Below are positions 2,660 to 12,545 of a stretch of DNA of 20,317 bases, in pieces. Below the pieces are notes generated by a model. That model saw only the letters and a program-made list of their open reading frames with translations, ran no database searches and was not told the origin of the DNA. Made by a program: the position numbers and the translations under genes. This DNA is from a virus, in the UHGV virus genome UHGV-1756682; one strand, given 5' to 3'. Numbering within the stretch: the stretch's first letter is position 1; each line of letters starts with the position of its first letter.

Positions 2660-2744
2660 CTTTCTCCTGTTCTTTGTGCTGATTGAGCATTTTGTTCATC
2701 TGACGAATGAATTCTTCGTCTGACCAGTTATCTGTAAAACTCAT
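2637..2744 (-). CDS. small acidic hypothetical protein (35 aa)
   Basis: Hand-translated ORF MSFTDNWSDEEFIRQMNKMLNQHKEQEKDDDSDSE. ATG 2742-2744 overlaps the cIII-like stop (ATGA coupling). Not in track (<60 aa). Confidence 0.3.
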   Translation of the reverse strand: MSFTDNWSDEEFIRQMNKMLNQHKEQEKDDDSDSE

Positions 2745-2911
2745 GGACGGCCTTGTTGTTTCAAAATATCCCAAAGCTTTTCGAGCAAACTTTTCGTTCT
2801 TGGTTGTTTAAAGTCTGCTCCGGTTAAAATGTTTTTTCGTGAATGCTGTACCGATAAAATCGGGTTGAAAGGGCGAACCGATGCCGCCCCTGCAATAGCG
2901 AACTGTTGCAT
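2741..2911 (-). CDS. cIII: CIII-like regulator (lambda CIII family, protects CII from FtsH)
   Basis: 56-aa product MQQFAIAGAASV...KSLLEKLWDILKQQGRP resembles lambda CIII (MQYAIAG...LLERITRKLRDGWKRLIDILNQPGVP, from memory). ATG 2909-2911 with AAGGAG 6 nt upstream. The longer track ORF 2741..3016 would span an intrinsic terminator, so the internal start is preferred. Confidence 0.6.
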   Translation of the reverse strand: MQQFAIAGAASVRPFNPILSVQHSRKNILTGADFKQPRTKSLLEKLWDILKQQGRP

Positions 2912-2976
2912 AGGATGCTCCTTCTGTTTGATTGCATAACGAAAACGCCTCGAGTGAAGCGTTATTGGTATGCATA

Positions 2977-3001
2977 TAAAAAAGCCCTCACACTGGAGGG
3001 C
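2977..3001 (-). terminator. rho-independent terminator on the leftward transcript
   Basis: Minus-strand sense reads GCCCTC-CAGTGT-GAGGGC followed by TTTTTTT: a 6-bp GC-rich stem (plus 2984-2989 and 2996-3001) and a 7-T tract (plus 2977-2983 as A). Confidence 0.7.
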
Positions 3002-3105
3002 AAAGAAGATTTCCAATAATCAGAACAAGTCGGCTCCTGTTTAGTTACGAGCGACATTGCTCCGTGTATTCACTCGTTGGAATGAATACACAGTGCTTCT
3101 CTGTG

Positions 3106-3303
3106 CTAAATAATTAAATCATATTCTGATTTTGTTAGTTTATAAGTACCTCCTCTGGTGTAATATGCAAATCTGTCTTTGCTTCCATCAGAATTGTATA
3201 CCCATCCACCAAATGGAAAGATAGTGTCTATTTCTCCAATATCTTTTTCACAACTAAATGTCTTTCCATTTTTAGTTGAATATGCCTTTCCAACTGTCAA
3301 CAT
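3106..3303 (-). CDS. small hypothetical protein (65 aa), AT-rich moron-like gene
   Basis: Track ORF; ATG 3301-3303 with AGAGG 5 nt upstream. DNA is visibly AT-richer than the flanks (not computed). Bracketed by two terminator-like hairpins. Confidence 0.5.
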   Translation of the reverse strand: MLTVGKAYSTKNGKTFSCEKDIGEIDTIFPFGGWVYNSDGSKDRFAYYTRGGTYKLTKSEYDLII

Positions 3304-3320
3304 CTTCGCCTCTGTTGTTT

Positions 3321-3350
3321 ATGACAAAAATGAAGGCCGACTATGCGGCC
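3321..3350 (-). terminator. tL1-like terminator candidate after the N-proximal gene
   Basis: Minus-strand sense GGCCG-CATAGT-CGGCC followed by TTCATTTTTGTCAT (stem plus 3335-3339 and 3346-3350). The stop codon of the 207-aa gene lies in the loop. Confidence 0.5.
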
Positions 3351-3964
3351 TCGGAAGGAAGTCCAATCATCTTATTCAAATCTTCTACCCGTAAAGCAGG
3401 AAGTGCTGTACTTGCTTTATCTGCTTCTTTTGGTAGCAACTCTTTGCTTTCAGGCCAAACTTCAATAAGTCGCTTAACTGTTGTGACTGAGTTCAAAGCA
3501 GCCCATACATTTGATTCGATATCCTTTTTCTTGGCTTCAAGTTTTTGTTGCAATGCGCAGATTTCATCAAACCTTTTTGTTATTTCGTGTTCTGCGTCAA
3601 ACATGCATTTATCTTTTTCTGGGGTGGGTAGCAATATATCTTCGCCGTTGCCGTCTTTCCCATATGAATACCAGCCAACCCTTCTGCCAGATACAGTCAG
3701 ATAAATTGAAGTAGAACGAACATCGCATGAGTAAAATGAACATCCCATCTTTTCAAGTTCTTCACTTATAGCTACTAACTTGGATGATAACTGATCCACT
3801 TCCTCAGTTTTCTTTTTCCCGCCAAACGCAACAACTCTGGCGTCAAGTGCAAGCTGATTCTTTAACTTTGTTACTTCTTCAAGTTCAATGAAAACCCCAG
3901 ACTTAATTAAAGCGTTACGAGCGATTTTCTCTTTCATTCTCGTAGTTAAGCGGATTGATGACAT
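3341..3964 (-). CDS. hypothetical protein (207 aa), first gene after N in the PL operon
   Basis: Track ORF 3341..4024; preferred start ATG 3962-3964 with GAGAGG 7 nt upstream. No TM segments seen and no family recognised. Confidence 0.6.
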   Translation of the reverse strand: MSSIRLTTRMKEKIARNALIKSGVFIELEEVTKLKNQLALDARVVAFGGKKKTEEVDQLSSKLVAISEELEKMGCSFYSCDVRSTSIYLTVSGRRVGWYSYGKDGNGEDILLPTPEKDKCMFDAEHEITKRFDEICALQQKLEAKKKDIESNVWAALNSVTTVKRLIEVWPESKELLPKEADKASTALPALRVEDLNKMIGLPSEAA

Positions 3965-3975
3965 ATTAATTCCTC

Positions 3976-4275
3976 TCAAATAAGTGGTTTGCTGCCTAAT
4001 TTCATTTTCTGGCGACCAACACAAGTCACACCAATTTCACTGCGTGGCTTGCGGTAGTAAATACGGTTCTGTTTACGCTCGACTTCTTCTGCCTTCTTGC
4101 AGCGAAGGCTTCCGAGTGATGCTGCTTTGTCTGCTCTGACGCAACCAGAGAGCTTTAGCGCAATTTTTCGCGCCAGTCGCTGCTCTTGCATTGCCTGCTC
4201 ACGTTGAGCCTGTCTGCGTGCTCTGCGGCGATTTCTGGCGTTATCGTCAGCCAGATATGTAATGACTACTGCCAT
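3976..4275 (-). CDS. N: N-type transcription antiterminator
   Basis: C-terminus NRIYYRKPRSEIGVTCVGRQKMKLGSKPLI closely matches lambda N (...TWYSKPGERGITCSGRQKIKGKSIPLI, from memory). N-terminal arginine-rich motif NARNRRRARRQAQREQ. ATG 4273-4275 with GGAGG 5 nt upstream. Confidence 0.85.
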   Translation of the reverse strand: MAVVITYLADDNARNRRRARRQAQREQAMQEQRLARKIALKLSGCVRADKAASLGSLRCKKAEEVERKQNRIYYRKPRSEIGVTCVGRQKMKLGSKPLI

Positions 4276-4381: not shown

Positions 4382-4424
4382 TTCCCGCATTTCGGCGGGA
4401 CAATCCCATCAATGTTAAAGAGCC
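4382..4424 (-). promoter_or_regulatory. nutL (boxA plus boxB)
   Basis: Minus-strand sense GGCTCTTTAAC (boxA, plus 4414-4424), a 13-nt spacer, then TCCCGCCGAAATGCGGGAA (boxB hairpin, plus 4382-4400). Both elements recur identically at nutR. Located between PL and N. Confidence 0.7.
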
Positions 4425-4469: not shown

Positions 4470-4556
4470 AGAATACTGTAGGTATTTTATTGTGTAAATA
4501 CCCAAGGTATTTATTTTTGGTGAAATAATGATAAGCAAATGAATACAAAGGATATT
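4470..4556 (-). promoter_or_regulatory. OL operators and PL promoter
   Basis: Three 15-bp AATAC-N5-GTATT palindromes: OL1 4472-4486, OL2 4497-4511 and a weaker OL3 4542-4556. Candidate PL on the minus strand: -35 TTTACA (plus 4493-4498), 17-bp spacer, -10 TATTCT (plus 4470-4475), overlapping OL1 and OL2. Confidence 0.6.
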
Positions 4557-4643: not shown

Positions 4644-5012
4644 TTAGTCAGCGAAGGTTAAGACGAGAATTACCTTAATGATGTCTGCTACAACAGACAC
4701 GGCCATAGATAAACCAAAGACGATCCAAGCCATAGAGATGTCTTCACTACCATCGTATAGCGTTCCGTAATCACTGGTGTAAGGCGTAAATGTCGCGCCT
4801 TGATACAACAGGTATAAGCTTGAACCATAGAGGATAAATGCAGATATCCATTGTATTGCTATGATCACCAGAATCATGAAACGAGCTGATCTATGCGCCC
4901 AAGCCTGGCTTATTTTTTCTGATAGAGATTTCGCAATAAAAGCATGCGCTAAGCCGTAAATTGTCGATATTGCCAACATCCCCAAAAAGCTTGCTATAGC
5001 GGTTCCAACCAT
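4644..5012 (-). CDS. small integral membrane protein in the rex position (candidate lysogen-expressed exclusion or conversion protein)
   Basis: Track ORF 4644..5033; preferred ATG 5010-5012 with AAGGGG 6 nt upstream, 18 nt after the cI stop on the same strand. Three long hydrophobic segments. No similarity to lambda RexB seen. Confidence 0.6.
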   Translation of the reverse strand: MVGTAIASFLGMLAISTIYGLAHAFIAKSLSEKISQAWAHRSARFMILVIIAIQWISAFILYGSSLYLLYQGATFTPYTSDYGTLYDGSEDISMAWIVFGLSMAVSVVADIIKVILVLTFAD

Positions 5013-5029
5013 ATTCGCCCCTTGCGTGA

Positions 5030-5746
5030 TCAAACCAGCCTTAGTTTTGTCTCAATTGCAACGCCTATAATCTTGCAGTTTCCATTGATTGGCACGAGAG
5101 GCCATGCAGGATTAAGTCCCTTGAGGTATTTATTTCCGCCGTCGATTATCAGCTTCTTGAATGTTGCTTCGTTAGAGTCAGAAAGTTTTGCTATGACCAA
5201 GCTGCCGTTGATCGCCTCCCTTCCGGTATCGAAAAGAACGAATGTTCCCTCTGGAATGCTTAACCCAACCGGTGCCGTCATTGAATCACCTTCCACTTTA
5301 AGCCAGAACGCATTACCTTGAATATGCGCGTCAGACTCAAGCCAAACATCTATGTCTTTAATGGTGTATGGTTCGCATGCTTCACACCACGAGCCAGCCT
5401 GGATACTGCTTAACACCGGATACCTCTTTCCTGCTCTGTATTCCCCTGCATACCTTACGTTGGCATCGCTCTTAAGGCTTTCTGCCTGTTCTGCAACCTT
5501 GGCAGCAATTGACTGGCTAAAATCAGCAATTGAGACTTGCAACAATCGTGCAAAACCAGATGCAACCTCAACGTTTAGCGCGTTTCTGCCATTAAGATAA
5601 TGCCCTACCGCTCCTTGGGTGATACCCAGTTCATCAGCAATTGAGTATTGGGTTATTCCCAATTCTTTCTTTTTTGACTCATACAAAGCCTTAAGCCGCT
5701 TAGCGTCTTCCAGCTGTTCTGTCGTCAGTGATTTTTTATTTTCCAT
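5030..5746 (-). CDS. cI: CI repressor (HTH plus LexA-like S24 autopeptidase domain)
   Basis: N-terminus MENKKSLTTEQLEDAKRLKALYESKKKELGITQYSIADELGITQGAVGHYLNG parallels lambda cI. C-terminal domain has the Ala-Gly site (SSIQAGSW), GDSM serine and FKKL lysine. Confidence 0.9.
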   Translation of the reverse strand: MENKKSLTTEQLEDAKRLKALYESKKKELGITQYSIADELGITQGAVGHYLNGRNALNVEVASGFARLLQVSIADFSQSIAAKVAEQAESLKSDANVRYAGEYRAGKRYPVLSSIQAGSWCEACEPYTIKDIDVWLESDAHIQGNAFWLKVEGDSMTAPVGLSIPEGTFVLFDTGREAINGSLVIAKLSDSNEATFKKLIIDGGNKYLKGLNPAWPLVPINGNCKIIGVAIETKLRLV

Positions 5747-5823: not shown

Positions 5824-5852
5824 TTGTTCATGGTTAATAACGGAGAGTGCAT

Positions 5853-6047
5853 ATGATTCGAATGACACTTGCCGATTACGCCAAAATCCATGGACAGGCT
5901 AAAGCAGCCAGTGACTTTGGTGTAATCCAGTGCGCTATCAGCAAGGCCATTCTGGCAGGCCGTAACATCATGGTTACGGTAAAGCCTGATGGCAGTGTGA
6001 TTGGAGAGGAAGTTCGTCCTTTCCCAAGCAACAAGAAAAACAAATAG
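5853..6047 (+). CDS. cro: Cro repressor
   Basis: [64 protein letters not shown] parallels lambda Cro. ATG 5853 with GGAG 7 nt upstream; the track GTG at 5847 sits inside the SD. Confidence 0.85.
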
Positions 6048-6155: not shown

Positions 6156-6434
6156 ATGGAACTTACAAGTACTCGCAAGAAAGCGAATGCAATTACAAGC
6201 AACATCCTGAATCGAATTGCTGTACGTGGTCAGCGAAAGGTTGCCGACGCGTTAGGGATTAATGAATCGCAAATTTCGCGATGGAAAGACAGCTTCATCC
6301 CAAAAATGGGAATGCTTCTGGCTGTTCTTGAATGGGGTGTTGAAGACGAGGAGTTGGCGGAACTGGCTAAGCAAGTAGCCAGAATGCTGACAAAAGAAAA
6401 AGCCCCGAAGAACGGCGAATTCTTCGAGGCCTGA
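6156..6434 (+). CDS. cII: CII transcriptional activator
   Basis: ESQISRWKDSFIPKMGMLLAVLEWGV closely matches lambda CII (KSQISRWKRDWIPKFSMLLAVLEWGV). Start ATG 6156 with AAGGAAA 9 nt upstream is preferred over the track start at 6069, which lies in the nutR/tR1 region. Confidence 0.85.
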   Translation: MELTSTRKKANAITSNILNRIAVRGQRKVADALGINESQISRWKDSFIPKMGMLLAVLEWGVEDEELAELAKQVARMLTKEKAPKNGEFFEA

Positions 6435-9692: not shown

Positions 9693-10637
9693 ATGACTGC
9701 GTATTACAACGAAATAGATCCGTATGCAGCGCAATGGCTGCGTAACTTAATTGACGCTGGAGAAATTGCCCCCGGTTATGTAGATGAAAGGAGTATTGAA
9801 GATGTCACACCAGGTGATTTGCGAGGATTTACCCAGCACCACTTTTTTGCAGGAATCGGAGTTTGGAGCTATGCACTTAGAAAAGCAGGATGGCCAGACA
9901 ACAAGAGTATCTGGACAGGAAGTTGCCCATGCCAACCTTTCAGCTCGGCAGGCAAAGGAAAAGGGGTTGATGACGAGCGGCACTTATGGCCGGCATTCTT
10001 CTGGCTTATTGAAAAATGCAATCCTGGCATCGTTATTGGCGAACAGGTTGCAAGCGCAGACGGCCTCGCTTGGCTCGACCTTGTACAAACTGACTTGGAA
10101 GGTGCGAACTACACCTCTGCAGGTACCGATATTTGCGCTGCGGGCTTCGGTTCTCCGCACATTAGGCAGCGATTGTATTGGGTGGCCTACTCCAACGACA
10201 AATATCAACTTTCAGCCAGAGACGCGCAGGGGAATTCAGAACCTATCTGGATGCGTGAGACTAGCGGGATGGCAAACTCCTTTAGCGAACGATGCAACAG
10301 GTTCAACGCATTGCTACAGCGGAAAAGACAAGAGCGGAACCCCAAGAATCTGCTTGAAACTTCCCGGGACGGTGAAGCTATGTACCCATTACCGGTTAAC
10401 GGCTTCTGGAGAGATGCAGACTGGCTTTACTGTAGAGATGAAAAATATCGTCCAGTTAGACCCGGCTCATTCCCGATGGTTAATGGCATTGCCAAAAGCT
10501 TGGGACGAGGCAAGTCCACACTGGGAAGAATGGCAAAGCGCAATCAAGATCAGCGAATTATTGGATATGGAAACGCAATCAATGCAGAAGTAGCAACGGC
10601 ATTCGTGAAAGTTTGTATGGAGGTTGTTAATGCTTAG
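9693..10637 (+). CDS. orphan DNA cytosine-5 methyltransferase
   Basis: Frame-0 translation carries C5-MTase motifs: I-like FFAGIGVWS, IV GSCPCQPFSSAG, VI-like GEQV, VIII HIRQRLYW, X GYGNAINAEVATAF. Start ATG 9693 (GAGGA 7 nt upstream); ATG 9687 overlapping the ninE stop is an alternative. No adjacent restriction endonuclease gene. Confidence 0.75.
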   Translation: MTAYYNEIDPYAAQWLRNLIDAGEIAPGYVDERSIEDVTPGDLRGFTQHHFFAGIGVWSYALRKAGWPDNKSIWTGSCPCQPFSSAGKGKGVDDERHLWPAFFWLIEKCNPGIVIGEQVASADGLAWLDLVQTDLEGANYTSAGTDICAAGFGSPHIRQRLYWVAYSNDKYQLSARDAQGNSEPIWMRETSGMANSFSERCNRFNALLQRKRQERNPKNLLETSRDGEAMYPLPVNGFWRDADWLYCRDEKYRPVRPGSFPMVNGIAKSLGRGKSTLGRMAKRNQDQRIIGYGNAINAEVATAFVKVCMEVVNA

Positions 10638-11068: not shown

Positions 11069-11679
11069 TGGCTAAACCAGCGCGAAGACGATGTAAAAAC
11101 GATGAATGTCGGGAATGGTTTCACCCTGCATTCGCTAATCAGTGGTGGTGCTCTCCAGAGTGTGGAACAAAGATAGCACTCGAACGACGAAGCAAACAGC
11201 GCAAAAAAGCGGAAAAAGCAGCAGAGAAGAAACGACGACGAGAGGAGCAGAAACAGAAAGATAAACTGAAGATTCGAAAACTCGCCTTAAAGCCCCGCAG
11301 TTACTGGATTAAACAAGCCCAACAAGCCGTAAACGCCTTCATCAGAGAAAGAGACCGCGACTTACCATGTATCTCGTGCGGAACGCTCACGTCTGCTCAG
11401 TGGGATGCCGGACATTACCGGACAACTGCTGCGGCACCTCAACTCCGATTTGATGAACGCAATATTCACAAGCAATGCGTGGTGTGCAACCAGCACAAAA
11501 GCGGAAATCTCGTTCCGTATCGCGTCGAACTGATTAGCCGCATCGGGCAGGAAGCAGTAGACGAAATCGAATCAAACCATAACCGCCATCGCTGGACTGT
11601 CGAAGAGTGCAAGGCGATCAAGGAAGAGTACCAACAGAAACTTAAAAAACTGCGAAATAGCAGAAGTGAGGCTGCATGA
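11068..11679 (+). CDS. ninG: NinG/Rap-like recombination protein
   Basis: 203-aa ORF with Cys clusters ([34 protein letters not shown]) and basic linker, as in lambda NinG. Confidence 0.85.
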
Positions 11680-12545
11680 CGTTCTCAGTAAAAACCATTC
11701 CAGACATGCTCGTTGAAGCATATGGAAACCAGACAGAAGTAGCACGCAGACTGAAATGTAGTCGCGTTACGGTCAGAAAATACGTTGATGATAATACGTT
11801 GATGATAAAGACGGGAAAATGCACGCCATCGTCAACGACGTTCTCATGGTTCATCGCGGATGGAGTGAAAGAGATGCGCTATTACGAAAAAATTGATGGC
11901 AGCAAATACCGAAATATTTGGGTAGTTGGCGATCTGCACGGATGCTACACGAACCTGATGAAAAAACTGGAGACGATAGGATTCGACACCAAAAAAGACC
12001 TGCTTATCTCGGTTGGCGATTTGGCTGATCGTGGTGCAGAGAACGTTGAATGCCTGGAATTAATCACATTCCCCTGGTTCAAAGCTGTACGTGGAAACCA
12101 TGAGCACATGATGATTGATGGCTTATCAGAGCGTGGAAACGTCAATCACTGGCTGCTTAATGGCGGTGGCTGGTTCTTTAATCTCGATTACGACAAAGAA
12201 ATTCTGGCTAAAGCTCTTGCCCATAAAGCAGATGAACTTCCGTTAATCATCGAGCTGGTGAGCAAAGATAAAAAATATGTCATTTGCCACGCCGATTATC
12301 CTTGTAACGAATACGAGTTTGGAAAGCCAGTTGATCATCAGCAGGTAATCTGGAACCGCGAACGACTCAGCAACTCACAAGACGGGATCGTGAAAGAAAT
12401 CAAAGGCGCGGACACGTTCATCTTTGGTCATACGCCAGCAGTTAAACCACTCAAATTTGCCAACCAGATGTATATCGATACCGGCGCAGTGTTCTGCGGA
12501 AACCTCACATTGATTCAGGTACAGGGAGAAGGCGCGTGGGCATAA
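11676..12545 (+). CDS. ninI: NinH-NinI fusion ORF; C-terminal 224 aa is a NinI-type Ser/Thr protein phosphatase
   Basis: N-terminal 37 aa match lambda NinH; from [24 protein letters not shown]...GNHEHMM the sequence is a lambda-PPase-like metallophosphatase. The two are joined in one frame by a 14-bp tandem duplication at 11781-11808. NinI keeps its own ATG 11874 with GGAG 8 nt upstream. Confidence 0.75.
11781..11808 (+). repeat. perfect 14-bp tandem duplication (TACGTTGATGATAA x2) inside ninH
   Basis: Read directly: 11781-11794 and 11795-11808 are identical. Confidence 0.9.

Follow-up and report, generated by a model that had tools for sequence, protein, structure and literature searches.

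An Nmad5-family gene in the N-proximal cassette slot of a lambdoid early-left operon and its plausible role in counter-defence

The window, that is, the whole 20,317-nucleotide stretch of UHGV virus genome UHGV-1756682 analysed here, carries a lambdoid early-left operon on its minus strand, and the segments with matches (35 to 65% of the window) are 96 to 97% identical to HK620-like and related lambdoid coliphages. Genes for a LexA-type repressor, Cro, and cII mark the immunity region (Table 1). The order on the minus strand is repressor, 129-aa open reading frame (ORF), PL-like promoter, nutL-like site, antiterminator gene N, and the ORF under study, which encodes a protein of the Nmad5 family. 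The nutL-like site is so called for its resemblance to lambdoid nut sites. N was assigned by its PHROG match; the Pfam N_peptide profile matched it weakly and below the cut-off (E 0.0011). Other window genes encode RecT, Gp157, O, a DnaB-type helicase, NinB, NinG, a NinH-phosphoesterase fusion, Q, holin, and terminase.

Three further frames deserve mention. The fusion is a 289-aa frame (11676..12545, plus strand) with a NinH domain at residues 1 to 40 and a calcineurin-like phosphoesterase domain at residues 80 to 254; ninH and ninI are separate genes in lambda. A 269-aa ORF in the nin region (9784..10593, plus strand) has no Pfam match. Segments of the 129-aa ORF next to the repressor gene are strongly hydrophobic, with a 19-residue hydropathy of up to 2.28, and the ORF is a candidate lysogen-expressed membrane exclusion protein.

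Table 1. Features of the early-left operon and immunity region, with positions in the window
Feature	Position	Strand	Remarks
cII	6156..6434		Marks immunity region
Cro	5847..6047		Marks immunity region
LexA-type repressor	5030..5746		Marks immunity region
129-aa ORF	4644..5033	minus	phrog_6534 (unknown); directly downstream of cI-type repressor, rexAB position
Operator-like near-palindromes (two)	4496..4512, 4472..4487		Flank PL-like promoter; read from sequence
PL-like promoter	4498..4470	minus	TTTACA, 17 nt, TATTCT; promoter scan and sequence
nutL-like site	4383..4424	minus	boxA-like GGCTCTTTAAC (4414..4424); boxB-like hairpin TCCCGCCGAAATGCGGGA (4383..4400)
Antiterminator N	3976..4275	minus	99 aa; phrog_271 "anti-termination protein N-like", E 1.2e-35
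Shine-Dalgarno site	3972..3977	minus	GAGAGG, read from sequence; 7 nt before ATG; overlaps TGA of N (3976..3978)
Nmad5-family CDS	3341..3964	minus	207 aa, 23.2 kDa, pI 6.65; PF18757 and phrog_1965 matches, AF2 model
Terminator-like hairpin and T-rich tail	3323..3352	minus	Hairpin 3333..3352, tail 3323..3332; consensus scan
orf65	3106..3303	minus	65 aa; phrog_15499 (function unknown); GC 31%; no Pfam match
Terminator-like hairpins after orf65 (two)	3001..2984, 2963..2944	minus	Consensus scan
56-aa ORF, cIII position	2741..2911	minus	Label by position alone; no Pfam match

The Nmad5 gene begins 11 nt after the stop codon of N. Its ATG at 3964, found both in the ORF list and by reading the sequence, was preferred over an upstream TTG because the homologues likewise start MSSIRL. 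The consensus scan found no terminator-like site on the minus strand between the PL-like promoter and position 3352, and the promoter scan found no promoter-like site between N and the ORF or within N. Because no terminator-like site intervenes, the gene is predicted to lie on the first PL transcript and should be transcribed early, together with N. The ORF has a GC content of 40.1%, compared with 50.0% for N and 46.6% for the whole window. A hairpin, GAGGCCGCATAGTCGGCCTT, lies at its end (7 bp, with the TAG stop codon in the loop) and is followed by CATTTTTGTC; it has a folding energy of -11 kcal/mol (z = -2.55 relative to shuffled sequences). An earlier note on this DNA had described an ORF directly after N that is AT-richer than N and has a strong Shine-Dalgarno site and a terminator-like hairpin over its stop codon, and its description is borne out on all these points.

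The encoded protein is balanced in charge (33 K+R against 33 D+E), and the median pI of the family is 7.65. The DNA mimics Ocr and ArdA, in contrast, are strongly acidic, with a pI of about 4, and the equal counts of acidic and basic residues together with the near-neutral pI rule out a DNA mimic here. Hydropathy reaches a maximum of 0.61 (19-residue Kyte-Doolittle window), so the protein has no membrane segment, and a membrane exclusion protein was ruled out on the same measure.

Beyond the Nmad5 hairpin comes a second cassette position, occupied by orf65 and closed off by two more terminator-like hairpins; the first of these (3001..2984) has an energy of -11.1 kcal/mol (z -3.68). orf65 is also found downstream of Nmad5 in Escherichia coli MS20659; a two-gene cassette of Nmad5 and orf65 was considered and dropped, as orf65 is absent from 80 IMG/VR relatives. 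The 56-aa protein encoded further downstream follows Nmad5 in 21 related loci, and its identification as cIII found no support in Pfam.

The family name stands for "nucleotide modification associated domain 5." Membership was judged by a score above the gathering cut-off (27) across the whole domain of PF18757, and residues 4 to 203 of the window protein match profile positions 1 to 206 of 206 with 239.5 bits (E 4.7e-71). By sequence, its place in the Nmad5 family is beyond doubt, and the statement in the earlier note that no family could be recognised was mistaken. The protein also matches phrog_1965, whose function is unknown. Besides Nmad5, the Pfam scan gave a sub-threshold P4Ha_N match and nothing else, with no match to the Ral profile (PF11058). 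No NCBIfam model matched the protein, no defence-protein model of PADLOC-DB 2.0 matched it at E <= 0.1, and a sequence search of the PDB yielded no relative (best E 0.17). Neither the protein nor the name Nmad5 was found in the supplements of Silas et al.

Proteins 94 to 95% identical to it bear the NCBI name "Nmad5 family putative nucleotide modification protein," and Nmad5 DNA under the RefSeq name occurs in 211 of 5426 complete E. coli genomes. The copy in a prophage of E. coli MS20659 is 99.3% identical to that of the window, and mEp235_037, annotated as hypothetical, is 97% identical to the window protein. A profile search of 1.84 billion representatives returned 2295 matches at E <= 0.001 (representatives at 50% identity), and stand-alone proteins of about 200 aa make up almost the whole of the best-scoring 150. 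Given the Pfam E value and the number of matching cluster representatives, the ORF is not a chance frame. The window gene is an ordinary member of a family already described and annotated, and the gene itself is not new.

A confident AF2 model built with 19 homologues as input (pLDDT 84 overall) has three N-terminal helices, followed by a small region of beta hairpin, one long helix (residues 127 to 158), short C-terminal helices, and a tail (residues 183 to 207) of low pLDDT. Foldseek found no PDB structure at E <= 0.001 for this model. In BFVD, no significant match had a characterised function; the matches at E <= 0.001 (E 1.5e-12 to 5.5e-4, best TM 0.75) are Nmad5-annotated or unnamed phage proteins, and the predicted fold is shared with other members of the family.

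Positions conserved in at least 70% of 148 diverse members, conserved also in the enterobacterial set and all present in the window protein, are R5, N17, K21, R43, G48-G49, G93, T162, K164, L166, W170-P171-E172, E175-L176, P178, L188-P189, L196-N197, and G201-L202-P203. The residues conserved across the family are mostly R, K, N, G, P, L, and W, and as read from the alignment they form no obvious catalytic set. The C-terminal signature is T-x-K-[KR]-L..WPE..EL[LI]P....LPA..V..LN..IGLP. The tail overlaps this most conserved motif, yet it is poorly placed in the model, and the coincidence of low pLDDT with the highest conservation suggests that the tail is a partner-binding peptide or module. 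The signature, as TxK[KR]L..WPE..EL[LI]P..LPA..LN..IGLP, is shared with the family, whose members include gp15 of Pseudomonas phage YuA (45% identity to the window protein over the C-terminal 88 residues) and the Nmad5 protein of SM_S22 (CDS0006; 31% identity over 100 residues). At 254 to 334 aa, the Dhillonvirus proteins exceed the window protein in length, and their N-terminal halves have no BLAST-detectable similarity to the window protein.

Exchange of genes at the position after N was surveyed in 68 usable loci from viral contigs with the same N allele as the window. A gene for a 156-aa protein (phrog_1636; 21/68 loci) is the most common in first place. The others are ral (PF11058, E 4.3e-48; 15/68), a gene for an 83-aa protein (10/68), Nmad5 (7/68), genes for a 140-aa membrane protein (4/68) and a 107-aa very acidic protein (phrog_1372; 3/68), and six other types (8/68); this single N allele is followed by at least 12 different cassettes. 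The 107-aa protein could itself be a DNA mimic. Most cassette types have a common left joint, consisting of the last codons of N, TGA, a Shine-Dalgarno site, and ATG (CCACTTATTTGAG followed by the Shine-Dalgarno site and ATG). At the ral loci, ral itself comes second, behind a short acidic frame (MEEEFEEFEEH...) that starts at the joint.

At the other end, many cassettes behind the same N allele stop at a common hairpin followed by TTTATTTTTGGCATAAACAACAG, and in some the last codons (K/E-A-A-stop) form the 5' arm of the hairpin. The same or an equivalent hairpin with TTTATTTTTGG stands after ral and several other cassettes, regardless of the preceding gene. Its recurrence behind varied cassettes indicates that the hairpin belongs to the slot and not to Nmad5; on sequence comparison it is the right-hand boundary of the cassette slot, and it is likely the equivalent of tL1. 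A variant hairpin, GAGGTCGCATAATCGTCC, with both arms changed and a T-T mismatch, occurs in 13 of 80 close relatives, and the terminator may be weakened in that lineage because the energy is -4.9 rather than -11 kcal/mol.

Ral of lambda, which counters restriction by enhancing type I modification, has the same position as Nmad5, with its joint after the same N allele and an equivalent hairpin at its end, with the same TTTATTTTTG run behind it, although Ral has 66 aa and no sequence relation to the 207-aa Nmad5 protein. The earlier note had assigned the gene to a slot equivalent to that of ral and sieB; the comparison of loci directly supports the ral-equivalent position, and the part of the proposal concerning sieB-like exclusion fares badly, as discussed below. 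In a second set, of 80 close IMG/VR relatives selected for Nmad5, the upstream gene is N (several alleles) or Nun in most loci. The downstream genes vary, and so does the recombinase type (RecT with Gp157, Erf, or Rad52-like with SSB). ral accompanies Nmad5 in 10 of these 80 loci; Nmad5 is therefore not simply a replacement for Ral, the idea of a functional substitute is weakened, and the two are probably not redundant.

In distant lineages, the commonest context of Nmad5 is a replication module consisting of genes for a 300-aa protein, a DUF2800 PD-(D/E)XK nuclease, an Enc34-type SSB, Nmad5, and PolA; in some lineages, Nmad5 heads this operon instead. Gaps are mostly 2 to 54 nt between SSB and Nmad5 and range from -4 to 74 nt between Nmad5 and PolA. 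In SPN3UB, Nmad5 lies within the nin region, and in Dhillonvirus a lone Nmad5 gene stands within the head module, on the strand opposite to it. A second survey, of loci fetched via the Enc34-type SSB, gave 62 modules with full flanks. Nmad5 is present in only 17 of them, and PolA often follows SSB directly, so Nmad5 was rejected as an obligate part of the module. Where Nmad5 is lacking from the SSB-PolA slot, in unrelated prophages, the slot is empty or holds a gene for a 500-aa SIR2_2 protein, a DUF2303 protein, or small ORFs. In some SSB modules, a gene for a CAP12/Pycsar TIR-domain protein follows PolA. By their domains, the SIR2_2 and TIR genes look like prophage-borne defence genes inside the replication module. 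The 17 of 62 modules and the variable slot contents together indicate that Nmad5 is an optional insert at variable positions of early operons and not a core replication gene.

Nmad5 is also broken in some phages. In the Stx2a-converting phage LC616075 (2529..4525), an IS3-family element has split it near codon 55, with transposase ORFs at 2738..3628 and 3625..3951 on the strand opposite to Nmad5. One record was inspected in detail; in the other Stx2a phage records listed, the match is likewise truncated and in two parts. This split and the viability of a Dhillonvirus deletion mutant, described next, indicate that Nmad5 is dispensable.

The experimental literature found on the family consists of a single study, that of Yamashita et al. 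(2025; PMC11846954), in which Dhillonvirus mutants escaping Tmn carried K296E or K216E in Nmad5, and sensitivity to Tmn returned when the escape mutation was reverted. Deletion of nmad5 left the phage viable and gave no escape, only a gain-of-function mutant helped the phage, and attempts to clone nmad5 failed, apparently through toxicity (PMC11846954). The nmad5 gene of that study is CDS0006 of SM_S22 (PP627283), and K296 aligns with R165 of the window protein, which falls inside the invariant T-x-K-[KR]-L motif. A 2026 preprint (PMC13001434) reports that Tmn recognises RIIB in phage T2.

Taken together, cassette slots common to ral and defence-type genes, predicted early transcription, dispensability, apparent toxicity, the lack of enzyme-like features, and an escape mutation in an invariant motif point to an accessory protein that acts by binding to the host or its defences. 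The protein is soluble and probably non-enzymatic. The best explanation, tentatively held and somewhat short of an even chance, is an early-expressed, dispensable, non-enzymatic protein that binds a host or host-defence protein in counter-defence or host takeover. On this view, the first slot of the PL operon holds Nmad5 as a self-contained cassette, which PL would transcribe together with N in the opening minutes of infection or induction, at a stage that does not yet call for antitermination. Basic phage growth would not depend on the protein, which would most likely bind a conserved host protein or a host-defence protein through its invariant C-terminal module, and the outcome would be counter-defence or host takeover and not base modification. 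Both the protein-binding mode and the counter-defence outcome are inferred from these features; an anti-defence role is made plausible by where the gene lies, by its predicted early expression and its dispensability, and by the published link to Tmn. T7 Ocr is likewise a first or early expressed accessory gene, as Nmad5 is predicted to be.

Several points weigh against counter-defence. Most known anti-defence proteins are much less widespread and less well conserved than this family. The PADLOC and NCBIfam searches, moreover, came up empty. A common slot does not imply a common function, most slot neighbours being uncharacterised and ral occurring alongside Nmad5 in the 10 loci noted above. 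In addition, several lineages pack Nmad5 tightly among genes of DNA replication and nucleotide metabolism, which a role in DNA metabolism fits equally well. The main rival explanation starts from this packing and holds that Nmad5 assists phage DNA replication or recombination as an accessory factor, such as an adaptor between SSB, nuclease, and polymerase or a protector of intermediates, its place in the PL operon being merely upstream of recombination genes. The short gaps in the order DUF2800 nuclease, Enc34-type SSB, Nmad5, and PolA recur in several lineages, the Nmad5 gene of Acinetobacter phage Scuro overlaps the start of PolA, that of Klebsiella phage Pylas (Schitoviridae, N4-like) has thymidylate synthase on one side and exonuclease, primase, Sak4, and SSB on the other, and the window gene heads an operon with RecT and Gp157. 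Against this rival, Nmad5 is found in only 17 of 62 Enc34-type modules, accompanies RecT, Erf, or Rad52-type recombinases alike in lambdoid phages, stands in the head module on the opposite strand in Dhillonvirus, and is dispensable. The replication reading is on balance unlikely.

Two further explanations fit the data poorly. The family name, which reportedly goes back to comparative genomics by Iyer and colleagues in 2013, implies a part in nucleotide or DNA base modification. It stems from phages of the YuA and M6 type, in which the homologue adjoins a kinase, a hydroxymethylase, and PolA. In YuA, gp15 has a putative kinase and gp14 on its upstream side and a dUMP hydroxymethyltransferase on its downstream side and precedes PolA, and Nmad5 is listed in an M6-type thymidine hypermodification cassette in the SN1 genome announcement (PMC9476957). 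Unlike the loci of YuA and M6, which have modification genes nearby, the window holds standard lambdoid genes only, with no kinase, aGPT-pyrophosphorylase, hydroxymethylase, or methylase, and mEp235 and the MS20659 prophage likewise have no such modification-enzyme neighbourhood. Neither an enzyme-like fold nor an obvious set of catalytic residues is found, and the association in YuA may come from a place next to PolA, an arrangement that phages with no modification gene among the neighbours checked show as well. Given the lack of modification enzymes nearby, the label "nucleotide modification associated" is doubtful for the window protein, and base modification is a very improbable role. A prophage exclusion or defence protein that protects the lysogen would suit the N-proximal PL region, where lambda and P22 carry sieB, as well as the SIR2_2 and CAP12-TIR defence-type domains in neighbouring variable slots of other prophages; the apparent toxicity that kept the Dhillonvirus gene from being cloned (PMC11846954) would also fit. 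SieB and Nmad5 share little beyond position, however: Nmad5 has neither a hydrophobic segment nor a promoter-like site of its own and lies downstream of the repressible PL, whereas the former is a membrane protein expressed in the lysogen. The PADLOC search gave no match either. Members of the family occur in Schitoviridae and Dhillonvirus phages, which are taken here to be virulent, and if they are, a lysogen-expressed role is unlikely for Nmad5. Superinfection exclusion of the sieB kind is thus unlikely, and lysogen protection in general is likewise very improbable.

For the family as a whole, it is possible, if doubtful, that Nmad5 is misnamed and is a very widespread non-enzymatic protein of counter-defence or host takeover that docks, by means of its invariant C-terminal module, on a conserved protein of the host or its immunity, with the Tmn-escape residue on the interface, and that the N-proximal position, from the N stop codon and Shine-Dalgarno site to the shared hairpin, is an exchange hot spot collecting ral, Nmad5, and at least 10 uncharacterised others. 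With its conserved joints, this slot offers a practical handle for mining accessory genes of lambdoid prophages. The Nmad5 family of phages is large, at 2295 clusters (50% identity), and its function is worth testing since it occurs here without modification partners, is exchanged as a cassette at two unrelated variable slots, one of them shared with ral and the other with a SIR2-like gene, and has an escape mutation in its conserved motif. On these three results, Nmad5 is a reasonable and cheap candidate for an anti-defence screen, and its RefSeq product name needs to be used with caution.
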